From Candidatus Nomurabacteria bacterium RIFCSPHIGHO2_12_FULL_42_19 (GTDB lineage Bacteria > Patescibacteriota > Minisyncoccia > Phycocordibacterales > UBA9973), in assembly GCA_001786955.1 (NCBI GenBank), contig MFUM01000002.1:3923-64225 (forward strand): a stretch of DNA of 60,303 nt, given 5' to 3'. Position numbers and translations under genes: made by a program. The stretch's first letter is position 1. Each line of letters begins with the position of its first letter. Shown in pieces: positions 3,835-28,207 of this stretch. Below the pieces are notes generated by a model. That model saw only the letters and a program-made list of their open reading frames with translations. It had not been told where the DNA came from and made no database searches.

Positions 3835-3913
3835 TTTTAGAAAGTCCGCATAATTTTCTGTTGAAAATTTGCTCAGGACTCAGCTCGTCGGCTTCCGTAG
3901 CCTTTCCAAAAAC
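3835..3913 (+). repeat. Repeat family F copy 1 (leader element upstream of yqeY)
   Basis: About 51 of 59 core positions identical to 14306..14380. Lies downstream of TGaTATAAT (3809..3817). Confidence 0.7.
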
Positions 3914-6892: not shown

Positions 6893-8368
6893 ATGCCTGA
6901 TATTATGGAAAAAAAGTATTACCCGACAATTGGTCTTGAAATACACGCGGAATTAAAGACAAACACCAAGATGTTTTGCGCGTGCAAGAATGACCCGGAT
7001 GAGGAAAAACCGAATGTAAATATTTGCCCGGTCTGCATGGCGCATCCGGGAGCATTGCCGGTGCCGAATAAAAAAGCCATTGAAAATGTCATAAAAGTTG
7101 GCTTGGCATTAGGCGGCCAAATTGCCGATTTCACGGAGTTTGATCGCAAGAATTATTTTTATCCGGATATTCCGAAAGGCTACCAGATTTCCCAATATAA
7201 ATATCCGATAGTTTCCGGCGGAAAATTGCTGGGAACAGATATTACTCGTGTGCATTTGGAAGAGGATACAGGAACAAATAAACACATAGATAGCCCCCAG
7301 GTCGGACCTGTGGGCTCCCACAGGTCCGACCTGGGGGCGAATGGGTATTCGCTGATAGATTTCAATCGTGCCGGAGTGCCGCTGATGGAGCTGGTAACAG
7401 AACCGGCAATTCACAGCGCCAAAGAAGCCAGTGATTTTGCCCGTGAACTGCAACTTCTTTTGTGTTATCTTGATGTATCGGAAGCGAATATGGAGAAAGG
7501 AGAAATGAGGGTAGAAGCGAATATTTCCGTTTCACCGGATCCGAAAATTCTTGGCACGAAAGTAGAAGTAAAAAATTTAAATTCTTTCAGAAGCGTCGAG
7601 CGTGCCATCAAATACGAGCTTAATAGAATGACAAAGCTTTTAGAGGAAGGATTGGGAAATGAAATAGTGCAGGAGACTCGTGGCTGGGATGAAAGCAAAA
7701 GTGAAACTTTTTCCCAAAGAAAAAAAGAGGGGAGCGCGGATTACCGCTATTTTCCCGACCCTGATTTGCCGAAAATGAAATTGCATGAAGCATTTGATTT
7801 GGAAAAAATAAAAAAAGAATTGCCGGAACTGCCGGGGGCAAAGCGAGAGAGGTATAGAAAAGATTTTGGAATAAAAGATGAGGATATAGAAGTATATATA
7901 AATGGTTTGGAACTTGCCAAATGGTTTGAAGATGTGGCAAAAATCTTGGCCCAAAAAGATAGTATAAAGATTCTTTCTAACTACGTTACCTCAGATTATC
8001 TTGGATTCAAAAAGAATAACTCAGACATAAAATTACCAAGCTCTAAAAATTTTGTTGAACTTATAAATTTAGTTACAGAAAACAAAATCTCTTCTCGCGC
8101 CGCAAAAGATATTTTGGCAATGATTGTGATAAAAGATGAATCGCCGTTAAAAATCGCGACAGAAAAAGGTTTACTGCAAAGTAGTGACCCGGAAGCATTA
8201 AAAAAAATCGCGCAAAAAATTATTGATGCCAATCCGAAAACCGTAGCGGATTATAAGGGCGGAAAAGAACAGGCCCTTATGTCTCTCGTGGGAGTTATAA
8301 TGAAGGAAACCAAAGGCTCGGCGAATCCATCGGTTGCCAAGCAATTATTAATAGATTTATTGAAATGA
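6893..8368 (+). CDS. gatB: Asp/Glu-tRNA amidotransferase subunit B, carrying an in-frame palindromic insert
   Basis: IGLEIHAEL, CPVC, HLEEDTG, NRAGVPLMELVTEP, and a C-terminal YqeY-like domain. Confidence 0.95.
   Translation: MPDIMEKKYYPTIGLEIHAELKTNTKMFCACKNDPDEEKPNVNICPVCMAHPGALPVPNKKAIENVIKVGLALGGQIADFTEFDRKNYFYPDIPKGYQISQYKYPIVSGGKLLGTDITRVHLEEDTGTNKHIDSPQVGPVGSHRSDLGANGYSLIDFNRAGVPLMELVTEPAIHSAKEASDFARELQLLLCYLDVSEANMEKGEMRVEANISVSPDPKILGTKVEVKNLNSFRSVERAIKYELNRMTKLLEEGLGNEIVQETRGWDESKSETFSQRKKEGSADYRYFPDPDLPKMKLHEAFDLEKIKKELPELPGAKRERYRKDFGIKDEDIEVYINGLELAKWFEDVAKILAQKDSIKILSNYVTSDYLGFKKNNSDIKLPSSKNFVELINLVTENKISSRAAKDILAMIVIKDESPLKIATEKGLLQSSDPEALKKIAQKIIDANPKTVADYKGGKEQALMSLVGVIMKETKGSANPSVAKQLLIDLLK
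7294..7337. repeat. 44-nt perfect palindrome inside gatB
   Basis: CCCCCAGGTCGGACCTGTGGG-ct-CCCACAGGTCCGACCTGGGGG: 21-bp arms, about three quarters G+C, translated as SPQVGPVGSHRSDLGA. Confidence 0.9.
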
Positions 8369-10021: not shown

Positions 10022-11935
10022 ATGAAAGAAGAGATACAAAAATTTTTTAAAGGGGATACGGACGACAGCGAGGAGACGTTGGTAAAATATTCGCATGATG
10101 CGAGCCTGCTGGAAGTCAGGCCGGAGATTGTGCTTTTTCCGAAAGATTCGGAAGACGTCCAAAATTTGGTAAAATGGGCGGGAGAAAATAAAAATAAATA
10201 TCCCAACCTATCTATCACTCCAAGATGCGCGGGTACGGATATGTCCGGTGGGGCCATTGGGGAATCCATAATTTTAGATTTTAGCCGGTATATGAATAAA
10301 CTGATTGGCGGGCCGTTGCCGATTGATAATCCGCGGGGTTTCCAGATTCCCCATCCTTATCCTAAGCGGAAAAATACGGCTATTCAAAAATTCAAAAATT
10401 ATCCTCTGGTTCCTTCCTATCTTACAACCCAACCCGGGATGTTTTATCGGGATTTTGAAAAAATAACTTTGGAAAAAGGATTGATTTTGCCTTGTTATAC
10501 GGCATCCAAGAGCTTGAATGCGGTGGGGGGGATGTATGGCAATAATTCTGCCGGCGAACGGACTTTGAAATACGGCAAGATAGAGGATTATGTTTTGTCT
10601 GCCAAGGTAGTTTTTGCTGATGGGAATGAATATATTGTAAAGCCATTGACGCAGGATGAATTAAATAAAAAAATTACGCAAGGCGATTTTGAGGGAAACG
10701 TTTATAAAAATATTTTTGAATTGATAAAAGATAATGAAGAAGAAATAAAACAGGCAAAACCGGATGTGCATAAAAATTCCGCAGGATATTATATTTGGAA
10801 TGTAATAAATAATCAGATTGTAAAGAATTCAGAATGGCGTAAGTCCCACCCCGTAATCGGGGAAGGGTCAAGCCAGAGGAATTTTTTACAATCTGATGAA
10901 TTTTTTGACCTTAATAAATTACTTGTTGGTTCGCAGGGGACATTGGGCATTGTCACGGAAATAACTTTCAAGCTGATACCGGATAATAAACACTCGAAAT
11001 TGGTAGTAATTTTCATGAAAGATACGGAAATGCTTGGTCGCCTGGTGGATGAAATTTTAATGCTCAACCCTGAAACGCTTGAAACTTACGACGACAAAAC
11101 GATGAAGCTGGCTGTCAGATTTTTTCCGGATTTTTTGAAAAATAAAGGATTTTTAGGAATGGCTAAATTTATGTGGAGTTTCTTGCCGGAATTTTGGATG
11201 ATGATTACCGGCGGTTTCCCGAAACTGATTCTTCTGGCTGAATTTGCCGGAGATGACGAGGCTGAAGTACATAAGAAATGCGAGGCGCTCAAATCAAAGT
11301 TGAAAATTTTTAATCCCGACGTAAAGTCGGGATCCCGACTAAAAGCGTCGGGGTTAAAAGTCCATATTACCAGAAACGAAACAGAAGCAAATAAATATTG
11401 GGATATCAGAAGAGAAAGCTTCGCGTTATTGCGTAAGCACGTCCAAGGCATGCGCACCGCTCCTTTCATAGATGATATTATCGTTCGTCCGGAATTTTTA
11501 CCTAAATTTCTTCCGGAGCTGAATAATATTTTAAGCAAATACGATTTGACCTATACCTTGGCAGGACATGCCGGCGACGGCAATTTTCACATTATCCCGC
11601 TGATGGATTTCAAGCGTCCCGATACGGCAAAAATAATAATAGAGCTTGGGGAATCCGTGTATGACCTGGTAATAAAATATCACGGCTCAATTACCGCCGA
11701 ACACAATGACGGCCTGATCCGCACGCCCTATTTGCGCAAAATGTATGGAGATAGAATTGTTTTAATTTTTGAAGAGATCAAGAAAATTTTTGACTCCAAA
11801 AACATTTTCAATCCCGGGAAAAAAGTTCCAATTCTAATTCTTAATAAAAGTGGTCCCACCAACGGCGGGGCAGGCACTAAGGAATACATAGCAACACATA
11901 TTGCGGTGGAACATGATGCCAGTCATCATGTTTAG
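10022..11935 (+). CDS. FAD-linked oxidase (GlcD / D-lactate dehydrogenase family) carrying two repeat-element inserts
   Basis: FAD-binding PCMH region PRCAGTDMSGG; C-terminal GHAGDGNFH and GSITAEHNDG. Confidence 0.8.
   Translation: MKEEIQKFFKGDTDDSEETLVKYSHDASLLEVRPEIVLFPKDSEDVQNLVKWAGENKNKYPNLSITPRCAGTDMSGGAIGESIILDFSRYMNKLIGGPLPIDNPRGFQIPHPYPKRKNTAIQKFKNYPLVPSYLTTQPGMFYRDFEKITLEKGLILPCYTASKSLNAVGGMYGNNSAGERTLKYGKIEDYVLSAKVVFADGNEYIVKPLTQDELNKKITQGDFEGNVYKNIFELIKDNEEEIKQAKPDVHKNSAGYYIWNVINNQIVKNSEWRKSHPVIGEGSSQRNFLQSDEFFDLNKLLVGSQGTLGIVTEITFKLIPDNKHSKLVVIFMKDTEMLGRLVDEILMLNPETLETYDDKTMKLAVRFFPDFLKNKGFLGMAKFMWSFLPEFWMMITGGFPKLILLAEFAGDDEAEVHKKCEALKSKLKIFNPDVKSGSRLKASGLKVHITRNETEANKYWDIRRESFALLRKHVQGMRTAPFIDDIIVRPEFLPKFLPELNNILSKYDLTYTLAGHAGDGNFHIIPLMDFKRPDTAKIIIELGESVYDLVIKYHGSITAEHNDGLIRTPYLRKMYGDRIVLIFEEIKKIFDSKNIFNPGKKVPILILNKSGPTNGGAGTKEYIATHIAVEHDASHHV
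10812..10897. repeat. Repeat family C copy 1 (TIR-bearing element inside the FAD oxidase gene)
   Basis: 19-bp TIRs ATCAGATTGTAAAGAATTC / GAATTTTTTACAATCTGAT (1 mismatch) flank the core GGCGTAAGTCCCACCCCG..GGGGAAGGGT.AAGCC, which is shared with 28021..28101. Confidence 0.85.
11315..11361. repeat. Repeat family A copy 1 (double hairpin inside the FAD oxidase gene)
   Basis: CCCGACgtaaaGTCGGG-at-CCCGACtaaaagcGTCGGG-gTTAAAAGT; matches 21282..21328. Confidence 0.85.
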
Positions 11936-14287: not shown

Positions 14288-14305
14288 GTCCATTTTGAAT
14301 GTACT

Positions 14306-14380
14306 TTTTAGAGCACGAATATTTTTCTGCTGAAAAATTTCTCAAGACTCGGCTCGTCAGCCTCCGTAGCCTCCAAAAAG
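14306..14380 (+). repeat. Repeat family F copy 2 (between rpmE and prfA)
   Basis: Aligns with 3835..3913 (TTTTCTGyTGAAAA.TTT.CTCArGACTCrGCTCGTCrGCyTCCGTAGCC..TCCAAAAA). Confidence 0.7.
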
Positions 14381-14406
14381 CATATTCAAAATTACCCTAA
14401 AATTAT

Positions 14407-27442: not shown

Positions 27443-28207
27443 ATGATTTCACAACATTTAGACAAAAATAACCTGCATCATGCATATTTGATAGAAGGTG
27501 CGCGTGGCGAGATTGTTCCAGAAATCGTAAAATTCCTGAAAAGTTTGGGCATAAATACCGTTGGCAATCCTGATTTTTGCCATATCGTAATTGATAATTT
27601 TAAAATTGATGAGGCATTTGACCTGCGCGCCATGTCTTCAAATAAAAGTTTCTCTTCTGTTAAAAAAGTATTTGTAATTTGCGTCAATAGTTTTTCTCTG
27701 GATGCCCAGAATGTCCTGCTTAAGATGTTTGAGGAGCCGATACAAAATACTCATTTTTTCCTGATTGTTCCGGATGCCAATGCTCTTTTAAAAACTCTCG
27801 TTTCCAGATTTTATTTAATTAAGCCGAAAGCGGAAGCGGGCGATGAATTAGAAGCGAAAAAATTTCTTGCCATGCCTTTAAAAAACAGAATTGATTTTAT
27901 TAAAGAATTATTGATTGAACCGGAAGAAAAAGATGAAGAGGGGAATGAAATTATCGCTTTAGATTCCACTCGTTCTAAAGCATTAAAATTTTTAAATGCG
28001 TTGGAGGGTGCTTTACATCGCAAGTTCCTGAAAAATTCTGCCGGCTTTACCCTTCCCCTTCGGGGTGGGACTTACGCCGCTCAGAATTTTTCAGGAACTT
28101 GCTTTGAGCATTTCTTCAAAGTCCGAGAATTTCTGCGTATGCCCGGTTCGTCCACGAAAAGCCTGATGGAATCAGTGGCATTAATTATACCTATTTTTAA
28201 AAATTAA
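27443..28207 (+). CDS. holB: DNA polymerase III delta'-like clamp-loader subunit, carrying an in-frame repeat insert
   Basis: LHHAYLIEG, KVFVI, LLKMFEEP, TLVSRF (SRC-like motif). Confidence 0.65.
   Translation: MISQHLDKNNLHHAYLIEGARGEIVPEIVKFLKSLGINTVGNPDFCHIVIDNFKIDEAFDLRAMSSNKSFSSVKKVFVICVNSFSLDAQNVLLKMFEEPIQNTHFFLIVPDANALLKTLVSRFYLIKPKAEAGDELEAKKFLAMPLKNRIDFIKELLIEPEEKDEEGNEIIALDSTRSKALKFLNALEGALHRKFLKNSAGFTLPLRGGTYAAQNFSGTCFEHFFKVREFLRMPGSSTKSLMESVALIIPIFKN
28021..28101. repeat. Repeat family C copy 2 (81-nt element with perfect 20-bp TIRs inside holB)
   Basis: CAAGTTCCTGAAAAATTCTG ... CAGAATTTTTCAGGAACTTG. The core is the reverse complement of the core at 10835..10876. Confidence 0.9.

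Follow-up and report, generated by a model that had tools for sequence, protein, structure and literature searches.

In-frame hairpin elements in housekeeping genes of Nomurabacteria behave like Rickettsia palindromic elements

Why should two housekeeping genes of one bacterium carry, without loss of reading frame, the same GC-rich hairpin, and why in opposite orientations? The question is raised by a 60,303-nt stretch of DNA from Candidatus Nomurabacteria bacterium RIFCSPHIGHO2_12_FULL_42_19 (contig MFUM01000002.1, positions 3,923 to 64,225; hereafter, the window), in which a holB-like gene and a gene for an FAD-linked oxidase each contain one copy of a short palindromic element. A first description made from the letters of the window (the sequence-only reading) presented the holB copy as an 81-nt element with perfect 20-bp terminal inverted repeats (TIRs) and the oxidase copy as the reversed core within diverged 19-bp TIRs of its own. 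It took both for a nucleotide element that tolerates translation and resembles a miniature inverted-repeat transposable element (MITE). The evidence presented below bears out a nucleotide element that tolerates translation and refines its nature: the element is probably a selfish protein-coding palindrome similar to Rickettsia palindromic elements (RPEs), its inner unit being copied between hairpin sites which are inherited vertically.

Both copies lie where the sequence-only reading had placed them, and its sequences are correct. In holB, positions 28021-28040 (CAAGTTCCTGAAAAATTCTG) are fully complementary to 28082-28101, and a repeat finder stretches the arms even to 21 bp (28020-28040 / 28082-28102, 100%, 41 nt in between). 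The 81 nt correspond to 27 codons of ORF (open reading frame) 27443-28207, read ..KFLKNSAGFTLPLRGGTYAAQNFSGT.. in the host frame. In the oxidase gene, the tighter arms (10812-10830 / 10879-10897) are paired at 18 of 19 positions and, extended to 27 nt, are 85% complementary; this copy is read ..NQIVKNSEWRKSHPVIGEGSSQRNFLQSD.. in ORF 10022-11935. In the window, the 16-mer GGGTGGGACTTACGCC has exactly two occurrences, whereas 0.14 would be expected even allowing three mismatches. Alignment of the two copies revealed that they have in common no more than the core, the linkers and an inner arm of about 9 bp (AAAAATTC / GAATTYTT). The outer halves of the presumed TIRs differ in sequence between holB and oxidase, yet each pair is complementary.

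On either strand, both copies form rod-like hairpins far beyond chance. RNA folds range from -39 to -53 kcal/mol (z -8.6 to -9.3) and DNA folds from -23 to -33 kcal/mol (z -7.7 to -9.8), and in neither case did any of 200 shuffles equal them; RNA folding was among the checks proposed with the sequence-only reading. A covariance model built from 43 family copies matches only these two places in the window, 10810-10899 on the minus strand (96.8 bits, E=4e-20) and 28018-28104 (82 bits, E=1e-16), the next-best matches being generic hairpins of at most 22 bits. A scan of the window against Rfam 15 at gathering score returned four tRNAs only and no match for the element, and a permissive scan gave only noise resembling miRNA precursors (at most 31 bits, against thresholds of 44 to 100 bits). 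Coordinates of the host genes and of the parts of both copies are listed in Table 1.

Table 1. Host genes and components of the two hairpin copies, in positions of the window
Feature	Position	Strand	Details
Host gene 1: holB-like DNA polymerase III delta-prime, 254 aa	27443..28207	+	ORF; Pfam PF13177, E=6e-17
Complete hairpin element, holB copy	28020..28102	+, core forward = gene sense	21-bp perfect arms; RNA fold -51 kcal/mol, z -8.6
holB left outer arm AAGTTCCTG, site-specific	28020..28029	+	resembles host sequence at the empty site of an orthologue
holB family-shared inner unit	28030..28092	+	inner arm GAAAAATTC, linker, core, linker, inner arm GAATTTTTC; columns 13-78 of the 43-copy alignment
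holB GC-rich core GGCTTTACCCTTCCCCTTCGGGGTGGGACTTACGCC	28043..28078	+	encodes disordered loop residues ~200-213; alignment columns nearly invariant in 43 copies
holB right outer arm	28093..28102	+	inverted complement of left outer arm
Host gene 2: FAD-linked oxidase, 637 aa	10022..11935	+	ORF; Pfam PF01565, PF02913
Complete hairpin element, oxidase site 1 copy	10804..10905	-, core antisense to gene	arms 10804-10830 / 10879-10905
Oxidase GC-rich core GGCTTGACCCTTCCCCGATTACGGGGTGGGACTTACGCC (minus strand)	10836..10874	-	reverse complement of holB core

A lack of further copies, combined with conservation of both segments in orthologous proteins of unrelated taxa, had been named with the sequence-only reading as the outcome that would speak against it. 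Instead, about 60 copies were recovered, at no fewer than 13 sites in 11 housekeeping genes. Public collections were scanned with the core pattern GCTTKACCCTTCCC-N5-12-GGGYGGGAC. Genome contigs gave 30 matches, 28 of them genuine at one or two per genome, and metagenome contigs 34, about 31 of them genuine; all genuine copies belong to genomes of the Nomurabacteria/Paceibacteria type, and viral contigs scanned for the same pattern contained no match. Chance matches (L013, L019, L060 and L061; L-labels denote related loci, P-labels related proteins) were told apart by their missing arms. Element length in the family is about 81-95 nt, and copy number is low, one to three per genome by the strict pattern. 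When the covariance model was applied to about 0.44 Mb of related loci, five additional, more diverged copies appeared, three of them apparently intergenic. A protein search with a 42-aa tandem of the element peptide produced no candidates.

The closest relatives of both host proteins of the window are proteins of Candidatus Nomurabacteria/Paceibacterota (Patescibacteria, or Candidate Phyla Radiation, CPR). Further hosts identified by Pfam are UvrA, LigA (NAD-dependent DNA ligase), UvrC (at two sites), LeuRS (leucyl-tRNA synthetase), an RluA-type pseudouridine synthase, an S-adenosylmethionine (SAM) methyltransferase and PheT (PheRS-beta). Counted without statistics, the hosts lean to DNA replication and repair (holB, UvrA, UvrC twice, LigA) and to enzymes of RNA or translation (LeuRS, PheT, the RluA-type synthase and the methyltransferase; loci L006-L064).

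Every genuine high-identity copy is placed in frame within a long ORF. The host frame is free of stops in 42 of 42 copies, whereas the two alternative forward frames are so in only 9 and 26 of 42; read-through translation is therefore implied. Forward copies always read (K/E)N(F/S)SG(L/F)TLPG.PGGT(H/Y).xQN and reversed ones always SEW(R/C)(K/G)SHPV.GEGSSQ. Both orientations are thus read, giving unrelated peptides, as the sequence-only reading had noted for the two copies of the window. In the AlphaFold model of holB, residues 198-213 form a coil with pLDDT (predicted local distance difference test) below 50 between helices 176-199 and 212-232. The core peptide is accordingly modelled as a loop at the tip of a helical hairpin, predicted to be a permissive surface position, in the one host (holB) whose predicted structure was used for loop placement.

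Comparison of the family members revealed that the element is built in tiers. In the middle lies the GC-rich core, 39 nt flanked by 9-bp inner arms, about 90% conserved and almost invariant in 29 to 43 aligned copies. This mini-hairpin core, the linkers and the 9-bp inverted repeat AARAATTC/GAATTYTT form an inner unit of about 58-62 nt. It is enclosed by outer arms of about 12 bp which differ at every gene site and even among orthologues, yet always pair; four LigA copies have four different arm sequences. The 81 nt of the sequence-only reading thus stand as the length of the hairpin in holB, but the unit that is repeated is only the shorter one, core plus inner arms.

Throughout their divergence the outer arms have remained about 90% Watson-Crick paired, with massive covariation. 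In 29 copies placed on an explicit structure, 80% of cells are paired against 64% in shuffles, and double-sided arm changes number 247 against 105 in shuffles, a value reached by none of 500. Sliding the partner column by one to three positions brings pairing down to 37-52%. Only about 1% of arm pairs are G.U. Outer-arm identity amounts to 0.56 between copies at the same site and to a random-like 0.31 between sites, whereas core identity is 0.86 and 0.84, respectively. Since third codon positions of the host oxidase are saturated between these genomes (0.47 identity), these values mean that the arms drift approximately neutrally under a pairing constraint and that the core is conserved far above the neutral level.

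Codon positions tell on what this conservation acts. Core deviations per site are 0.094, 0.012 and 0.091 at codon positions 1, 2 and 3, and those of the outer arms about 0.51 at all three. Judged from these alignments, the constraint is shown to act on nucleotides, not on the encoded peptide. Mismatches in the arms are asymmetric. Counted on the strand that reads the core forward (in about 88% of copies the mRNA strand), they comprise 47 A.C and only 12 G.U (43 copies, columns 1-21 / 70-90), or 30 and 11 when one inherited column is left out, so that wobble is tolerated on the complementary strand. Selection for an mRNA hairpin would leave the reverse pattern behind; the asymmetry suggests maintenance at the DNA level or a role of the complementary strand.

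Next, we compared orthologous sites. At the holB site, many orthologues (63-79% identity) carry an insert, others have core-deleted or reversed remnants (P0094, P0053) and still others are short. Among 120 orthologues of the oxidase, about one in three lacks an insert at site 1, the closest one (76% identity) included; in filled orthologues, four core types (A-D) occur, in either orientation and sometimes doubled. A second loop of the oxidase, site 2, behaves in the same way. At three sites (oxidase 1, LigA and LeuRS) both orientations occur in different species within similar arms, and when the L003 palindrome is reverse-complemented in place by hand, the reversed reading of the window results. 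The insert-free orthologues called for by the sequence-only reading thus exist, beside filled, decayed and flipped states of the same sites. Presence and absence at orthologous sites are seen to differ between species only, not between strains.

At the DNA level, filled oxidase sites have gained about 27 codons over empty ones. Target-site duplications (TSDs), which the sequence-only reading proposed to look for at the TIR ends, are absent both from filled versus empty oxidase sites and from the flanks of 29 copies, where the palindrome fades into its surroundings. The net gain in holB is only about 18 codons, and the empty holB site in L069 reads AAGTTCATG, which resembles the outermost left arm AAGTTCCTG. 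Host codons may thus have been replaced here by an inverted copy, which became the right outer arm. Such an origin of the outer arm from the host flank is plausible at holB, where AAGTTCxTG is found also at the L069 empty site; at oxidase site 1, unlike holB, the whole hairpin is extra relative to empty sites.

Copies within one genome proved to resemble each other. All 11 oxidase orthologues with typed inserts at both sites have the same type at both. In L070, identity between two type-B copies is 100% over a stretch of about 58 nt, although their outer arms, perfectly paired, are unrelated, and in L071 two type-A copies share substitutions found nowhere else (GGCTTAACC, CCGGTTGGG). At both sites, L070 (type B) and L071 (type A) have outer arms that are clearly orthologous to each other. 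The two copies of the window likewise share a TTACGCC core variant and a C/G apical pair, unlike most holB orthologues. This same-genome sharing indicates that sites exchange their inner units, whereas outer arms remain in place and pass on with their gene. As the comparisons show, outer arms descend vertically with the host gene and diverge about neutrally with Watson-Crick complementarity retained, and the inner unit is alike across the sites of one genome, its type (A-D) and orientation varying between genomes at one site.

Some observations on the oxidase gene deserve separate mention. In L066 (~345-470), a full type-A copy at site 1 has a second, partial one (AAGAATTTTCCCGGCTTTA) behind it; site 1 is occupied by double or tandem inserts also in P0135, P0137, P0152, P0200 and P0205, P0137 having a reversed type-B remnant beside a forward type-B copy. 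Such double inserts suggest repeated insertion at an occupied site. The partial oxidase P0196 is nearly identical to the window protein up to the insert site, then carries a forward type-B element in place of the reversed type-A one, and downstream of the insert is only about 85% identical to the window protein. Recombination at the element and chimeric assembly at the repeat are both possible explanations. The site 2 loop of the window (~10300-10430, GGPLPIDN...K-rich...NYPLVPSY) is hypervariable in 120 orthologues; elsewhere it holds type A, B, C or reversed elements, and in the window a different, lysine-rich segment.

What kind of element behaves like this? We consider it probable that we deal with an RPE-like selfish palindrome, in which vertically inherited hairpin sites receive copies of each other's inner unit, and the best reading of the inserts is that they are translated as a harmless loop rich in Gly, Pro, Ser and Thr in permissive surface loops of housekeeping proteins. 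As the same sites are filled in many related species, most inserts are old and vertically inherited, the inner unit having been exchanged later. A hairpin repeat with long arms would have colonised permissive loops originally. Its inner 58-62 nt would then be homogenised within each genome by copying between existing hairpin sites, either through gene conversion or through template switching during replication, anchored on the near-palindromic AARAATTC inner arms, whose symmetry would permit either orientation. Arm complementarity could be kept by templated correction of one arm from the other (quasi-palindrome correction, acting on DNA) or by selection on the hairpin, and elements might be lost via deletion between the arms.

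Several observations weigh against this explanation. No mobilising enzyme, autonomous partner or TSD was found, so mobility is deduced from the distribution of copies only. Among near-identical relatives of the window's two proteins, which recur unchanged on 27 and 37 contigs, no empty or flipped variant turned up, nor did one in their 90% clusters; nothing thus shows current activity in this species. Conservation of the type-A core across deeply diverged genomes could reflect a function for the host. The same-genome signal of core identity is weak for type-A pairs from the pattern scan (n=5, p about 0.1). A purely neutral selfish model does not explain why about 88% of copies are forward and why a single frame is used, and the excess of A.C over G.U among arm mismatches (47:12) remains unaccounted for.

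A bolder variant of the selfish explanation would make the inner unit an actively homing cassette at the hairpin tip, about 60 nt long, which copies itself in either direction into vertically inherited palindromic "sockets" in essential genes without transposase-type recognition of TIRs and without TSD, new types A-D spreading horizontally and replacing the residents. We regard this as doubtful. Such a cassette might use a single-stranded DNA intermediate of one strand, at which the A.C/G.T asymmetry could hint. If true, it would represent a mode of mobility and concerted evolution undescribed for any bacterial repeat.

Explanations without a selfish palindrome have to be weighed against the same data. 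A structured DNA or RNA signal that serves the host (a protein-binding site, a determinant of mRNA processing or stability, or a translational pause) and is kept by purifying selection would agree with a core about 90% conserved despite saturated synonymous sites of the host, with compensatory changes that maintain stem pairing, with the strong orientation bias (about 88% forward), with strand-asymmetric mismatches and with hosts skewed to DNA repair, replication and translation. We nevertheless hold it unlikely, because the element is dispensable: about a third of oxidase orthologues are empty and many holB remnants are decayed or core-deleted. Unrelated cores (types A-D) occupy the same site in different genomes, both orientations occur at three sites, and on the mRNA strand A.C exceeds G.U by 46:13, contrary to selection for an mRNA hairpin. 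Neither an Rfam match nor terminator-like behaviour above chance was found; as intragenic terminators the hairpins were rejected, terminator-like sites being no commoner than in shuffles. Selection for the peptide itself (..GLTLPGVPGGTHT..), as a module functioning in the host proteins, is hardly credible. It would explain one peptide in one frame at all forward sites, but third codon positions are conserved as much as first ones, reversed copies encode an unrelated peptide, the loop is disordered in the holB model and residues encoded by the arms vary freely. Between them, the codon-position test and the reversed copies exclude peptide-level selection, and a protein module is effectively refuted. 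Here the sequence-only reading, which took the element for a nucleotide element free of protein selection, gains support from codon positions, from both orientations, from 11 host genes and from the states of orthologous sites.

The same cannot be said of its comparison to MITEs. A classical MITE, moved in cut-and-paste fashion by a transposase that is encoded elsewhere and recognises the TIRs, would likewise be small, bounded by inverted repeats and devoid of coding capacity; in its favour, related genomes differ in which sites are filled, one site may hold double or tandem inserts, and Y1-type transposases are encoded in related genomes. We nevertheless hold a classical MITE quite unlikely: there is no TSD, copy number stays at one to three per genome by the strict pattern, and the terminal 12 bp or so of the arms differ at every site, so that no common binding site for a transposase exists. 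No insertion sequence with matching ends was found in about 0.5 Mb of related DNA examined. Y1_Tnp genes are flanked by unrelated hairpins and none is present in the window. Specifically, the Y1_Tnp gene (PF01797, IS200/RAYT-like; RAYT, REP-associated tyrosine transposase) near the oxidase, at L071:14674-15318(-), was rejected as mobiliser, its own flanking hairpins ACATAGGAGTTTCCT / AGGAAACTCCTATGT being unrelated to the element, and its homologues at L054:8105-8608 and L021:3-299 have no link to the element. Mobility by an EcoRI-like cut-and-ligate route via GAATTC inner arms was rejected as well, because GAATTC is not conserved (GAATTT, AAATTC and GGTTTT variants occur). An intragenic inverton, with the core flipping reversibly within a population to give two protein isoforms, is very improbable. 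In its favour, the segment is short and flanked by inverted repeats, both orientations keep the frame at three orthologous sites in different species, and the L003 palindrome flipped in place gives the reversed peptide of the window. Against such flipping stand the window proteins, invariant on their 27 and 37 contigs with no flipped form in the 90% clusters, only 41-48 nt between the arms, no invertase seen beside any copy, and encoded peptides without constraint at the protein level.

The window contains further hairpins. The GatB ORF (6893-8368) holds a perfect 22-bp GC-rich palindrome at 7293-7338, GCCCCCAGGTCGGACCTGTGGG CT CCCACAGGTCCGACCTGGGGGC, which is a 48-nt in-frame insert encoding SPQVGPVGSHRSDLGA; the L003 orthologue of GatB is without it. 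This second palindrome inside a coding sequence of the window is unrelated to the element and has no copy in other loci examined. In the intergenic segment 17852-17995, inverted arms of 26 nt, 92% complementary, enclose a structured spacer of 92 nt, and the repeat folds at -45.9 kcal/mol. Part of the segment, GGACTTACGCGAC, is identical to the right half of the subtype-3 core, and a shorter homologue is present at L042:10038-10147; the segment could represent an intergenic relative of the element, or a small RNA. Another intergenic hairpin, at 14292-14392, has arms of 22 nt. Of its sequence, 50 nt recur with 86% identity at 3854-3903, upstream of another gene in the window, and 26 nt at L003:14248-14273; the motif could be a leader or a regulatory motif. 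As members of the family, all three were rejected, with covariance scores of generic hairpins or no match.

Protein-coding palindromes used to count as a speciality of Rickettsia and Wolbachia; that Patescibacteria possess a family of their own, independent and built differently, shows that such palindromes recur in reduced genomes. With core, inner arm and outer arm under visibly different regimes, it is an unusually clean system. It opens to testing how short perfect palindromes are kept up, how dispersed repeats are homogenised without a transposase, and how the clamp loader, UvrA, UvrC, LigA and aminoacyl-tRNA synthetases gain loops. The inserts also add bulk and diversity to CPR protein families. 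They can lead alignments and orthology calls astray, and the repeat may favour chimeric assemblies or recombination.

Among known systems, the AT-rich, reduced mitochondrial genomes of yeasts have coding sequences dotted with small GC-rich hairpins, namely GC-rich palindromic clusters and translational-bypass elements ("byps"). A byp breaks the reading frame and the ribosome hops over it, whereas the copies described here are all in frame and free of stops, implying ordinary translation. Classical bacterial MITEs that occur within genes, namely Correia elements/NEMIS (107-bp form), ERIC and YPAL, are likewise small non-autonomous repeats whose transcripts form long stem-loops, but they have conserved TIRs, TA or other TSDs and mostly intergenic positions (PMC2229807); in our family there is no TSD, the terminal halves of the arms are site-specific and nearly all high-identity copies are intragenic. 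Repetitive extragenic palindromes (REPs) and the bacterial interspersed mosaic elements (BIMEs) formed by them, associated with RAYT (Y1) proteins, are also short, GC-rich, imperfect palindromes without TSD, and recognition of the REP hairpin takes place on a single DNA strand (PMC3733652), with which the strand asymmetry of mismatches in our family might agree. REPs are, however, extragenic, 20-40 bp long, provided with GTAG/CGTC heads and flank a RAYT gene (PMC3733652), whereas the copies here are intragenic.

The closest likeness is to RPE-1 to RPE-10 (Ogata et al. 2000 Science, 2002 Genome Res) and the related protein-coding palindromes of Wolbachia (summarised in PMC2229807, PMC10969869, PMC3767692). 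RPEs are palindromes inserted in frame in conserved genes, translated and tolerated, with no clear TSD and no known transposase (PMC2229807, PMC10969869, PMC3767692), and their hosts in Rickettsia are a similar mix of genes (PMC3767692). Our family shares with them repeated palindromic DNA folding into a long hairpin, in-frame position in conserved housekeeping genes with the ORF left intact, translation at the protein surface, hosts including DNA polymerase III, excinuclease and aminoacyl-tRNA synthetase genes, occupation of one and the same locus across orthologues (in some cases by different groups), lack of a clear TSD and of a known transposase, and a reduced host genome. In the literature searched, we found no report of such elements in CPR/Patescibacteria, and the dynamics of a cassette in its socket are, to our knowledge, undescribed so far. 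The family is set apart from RPEs by host, length and anatomy. Its hosts are Patescibacteria instead of Rickettsiales, its copies are shorter (81-95 nt versus 105-150 nt) and far fewer, and it is tiered, an almost invariant GC-rich core being held within site-specific arms that drift neutrally and covary. Homogenisation of the inner unit within a genome and flips in place are features that the RPE sources cited here do not describe. The element thus behaves like a protein-coding palindrome of the RPE type, yet stands outside the RPE families proper.

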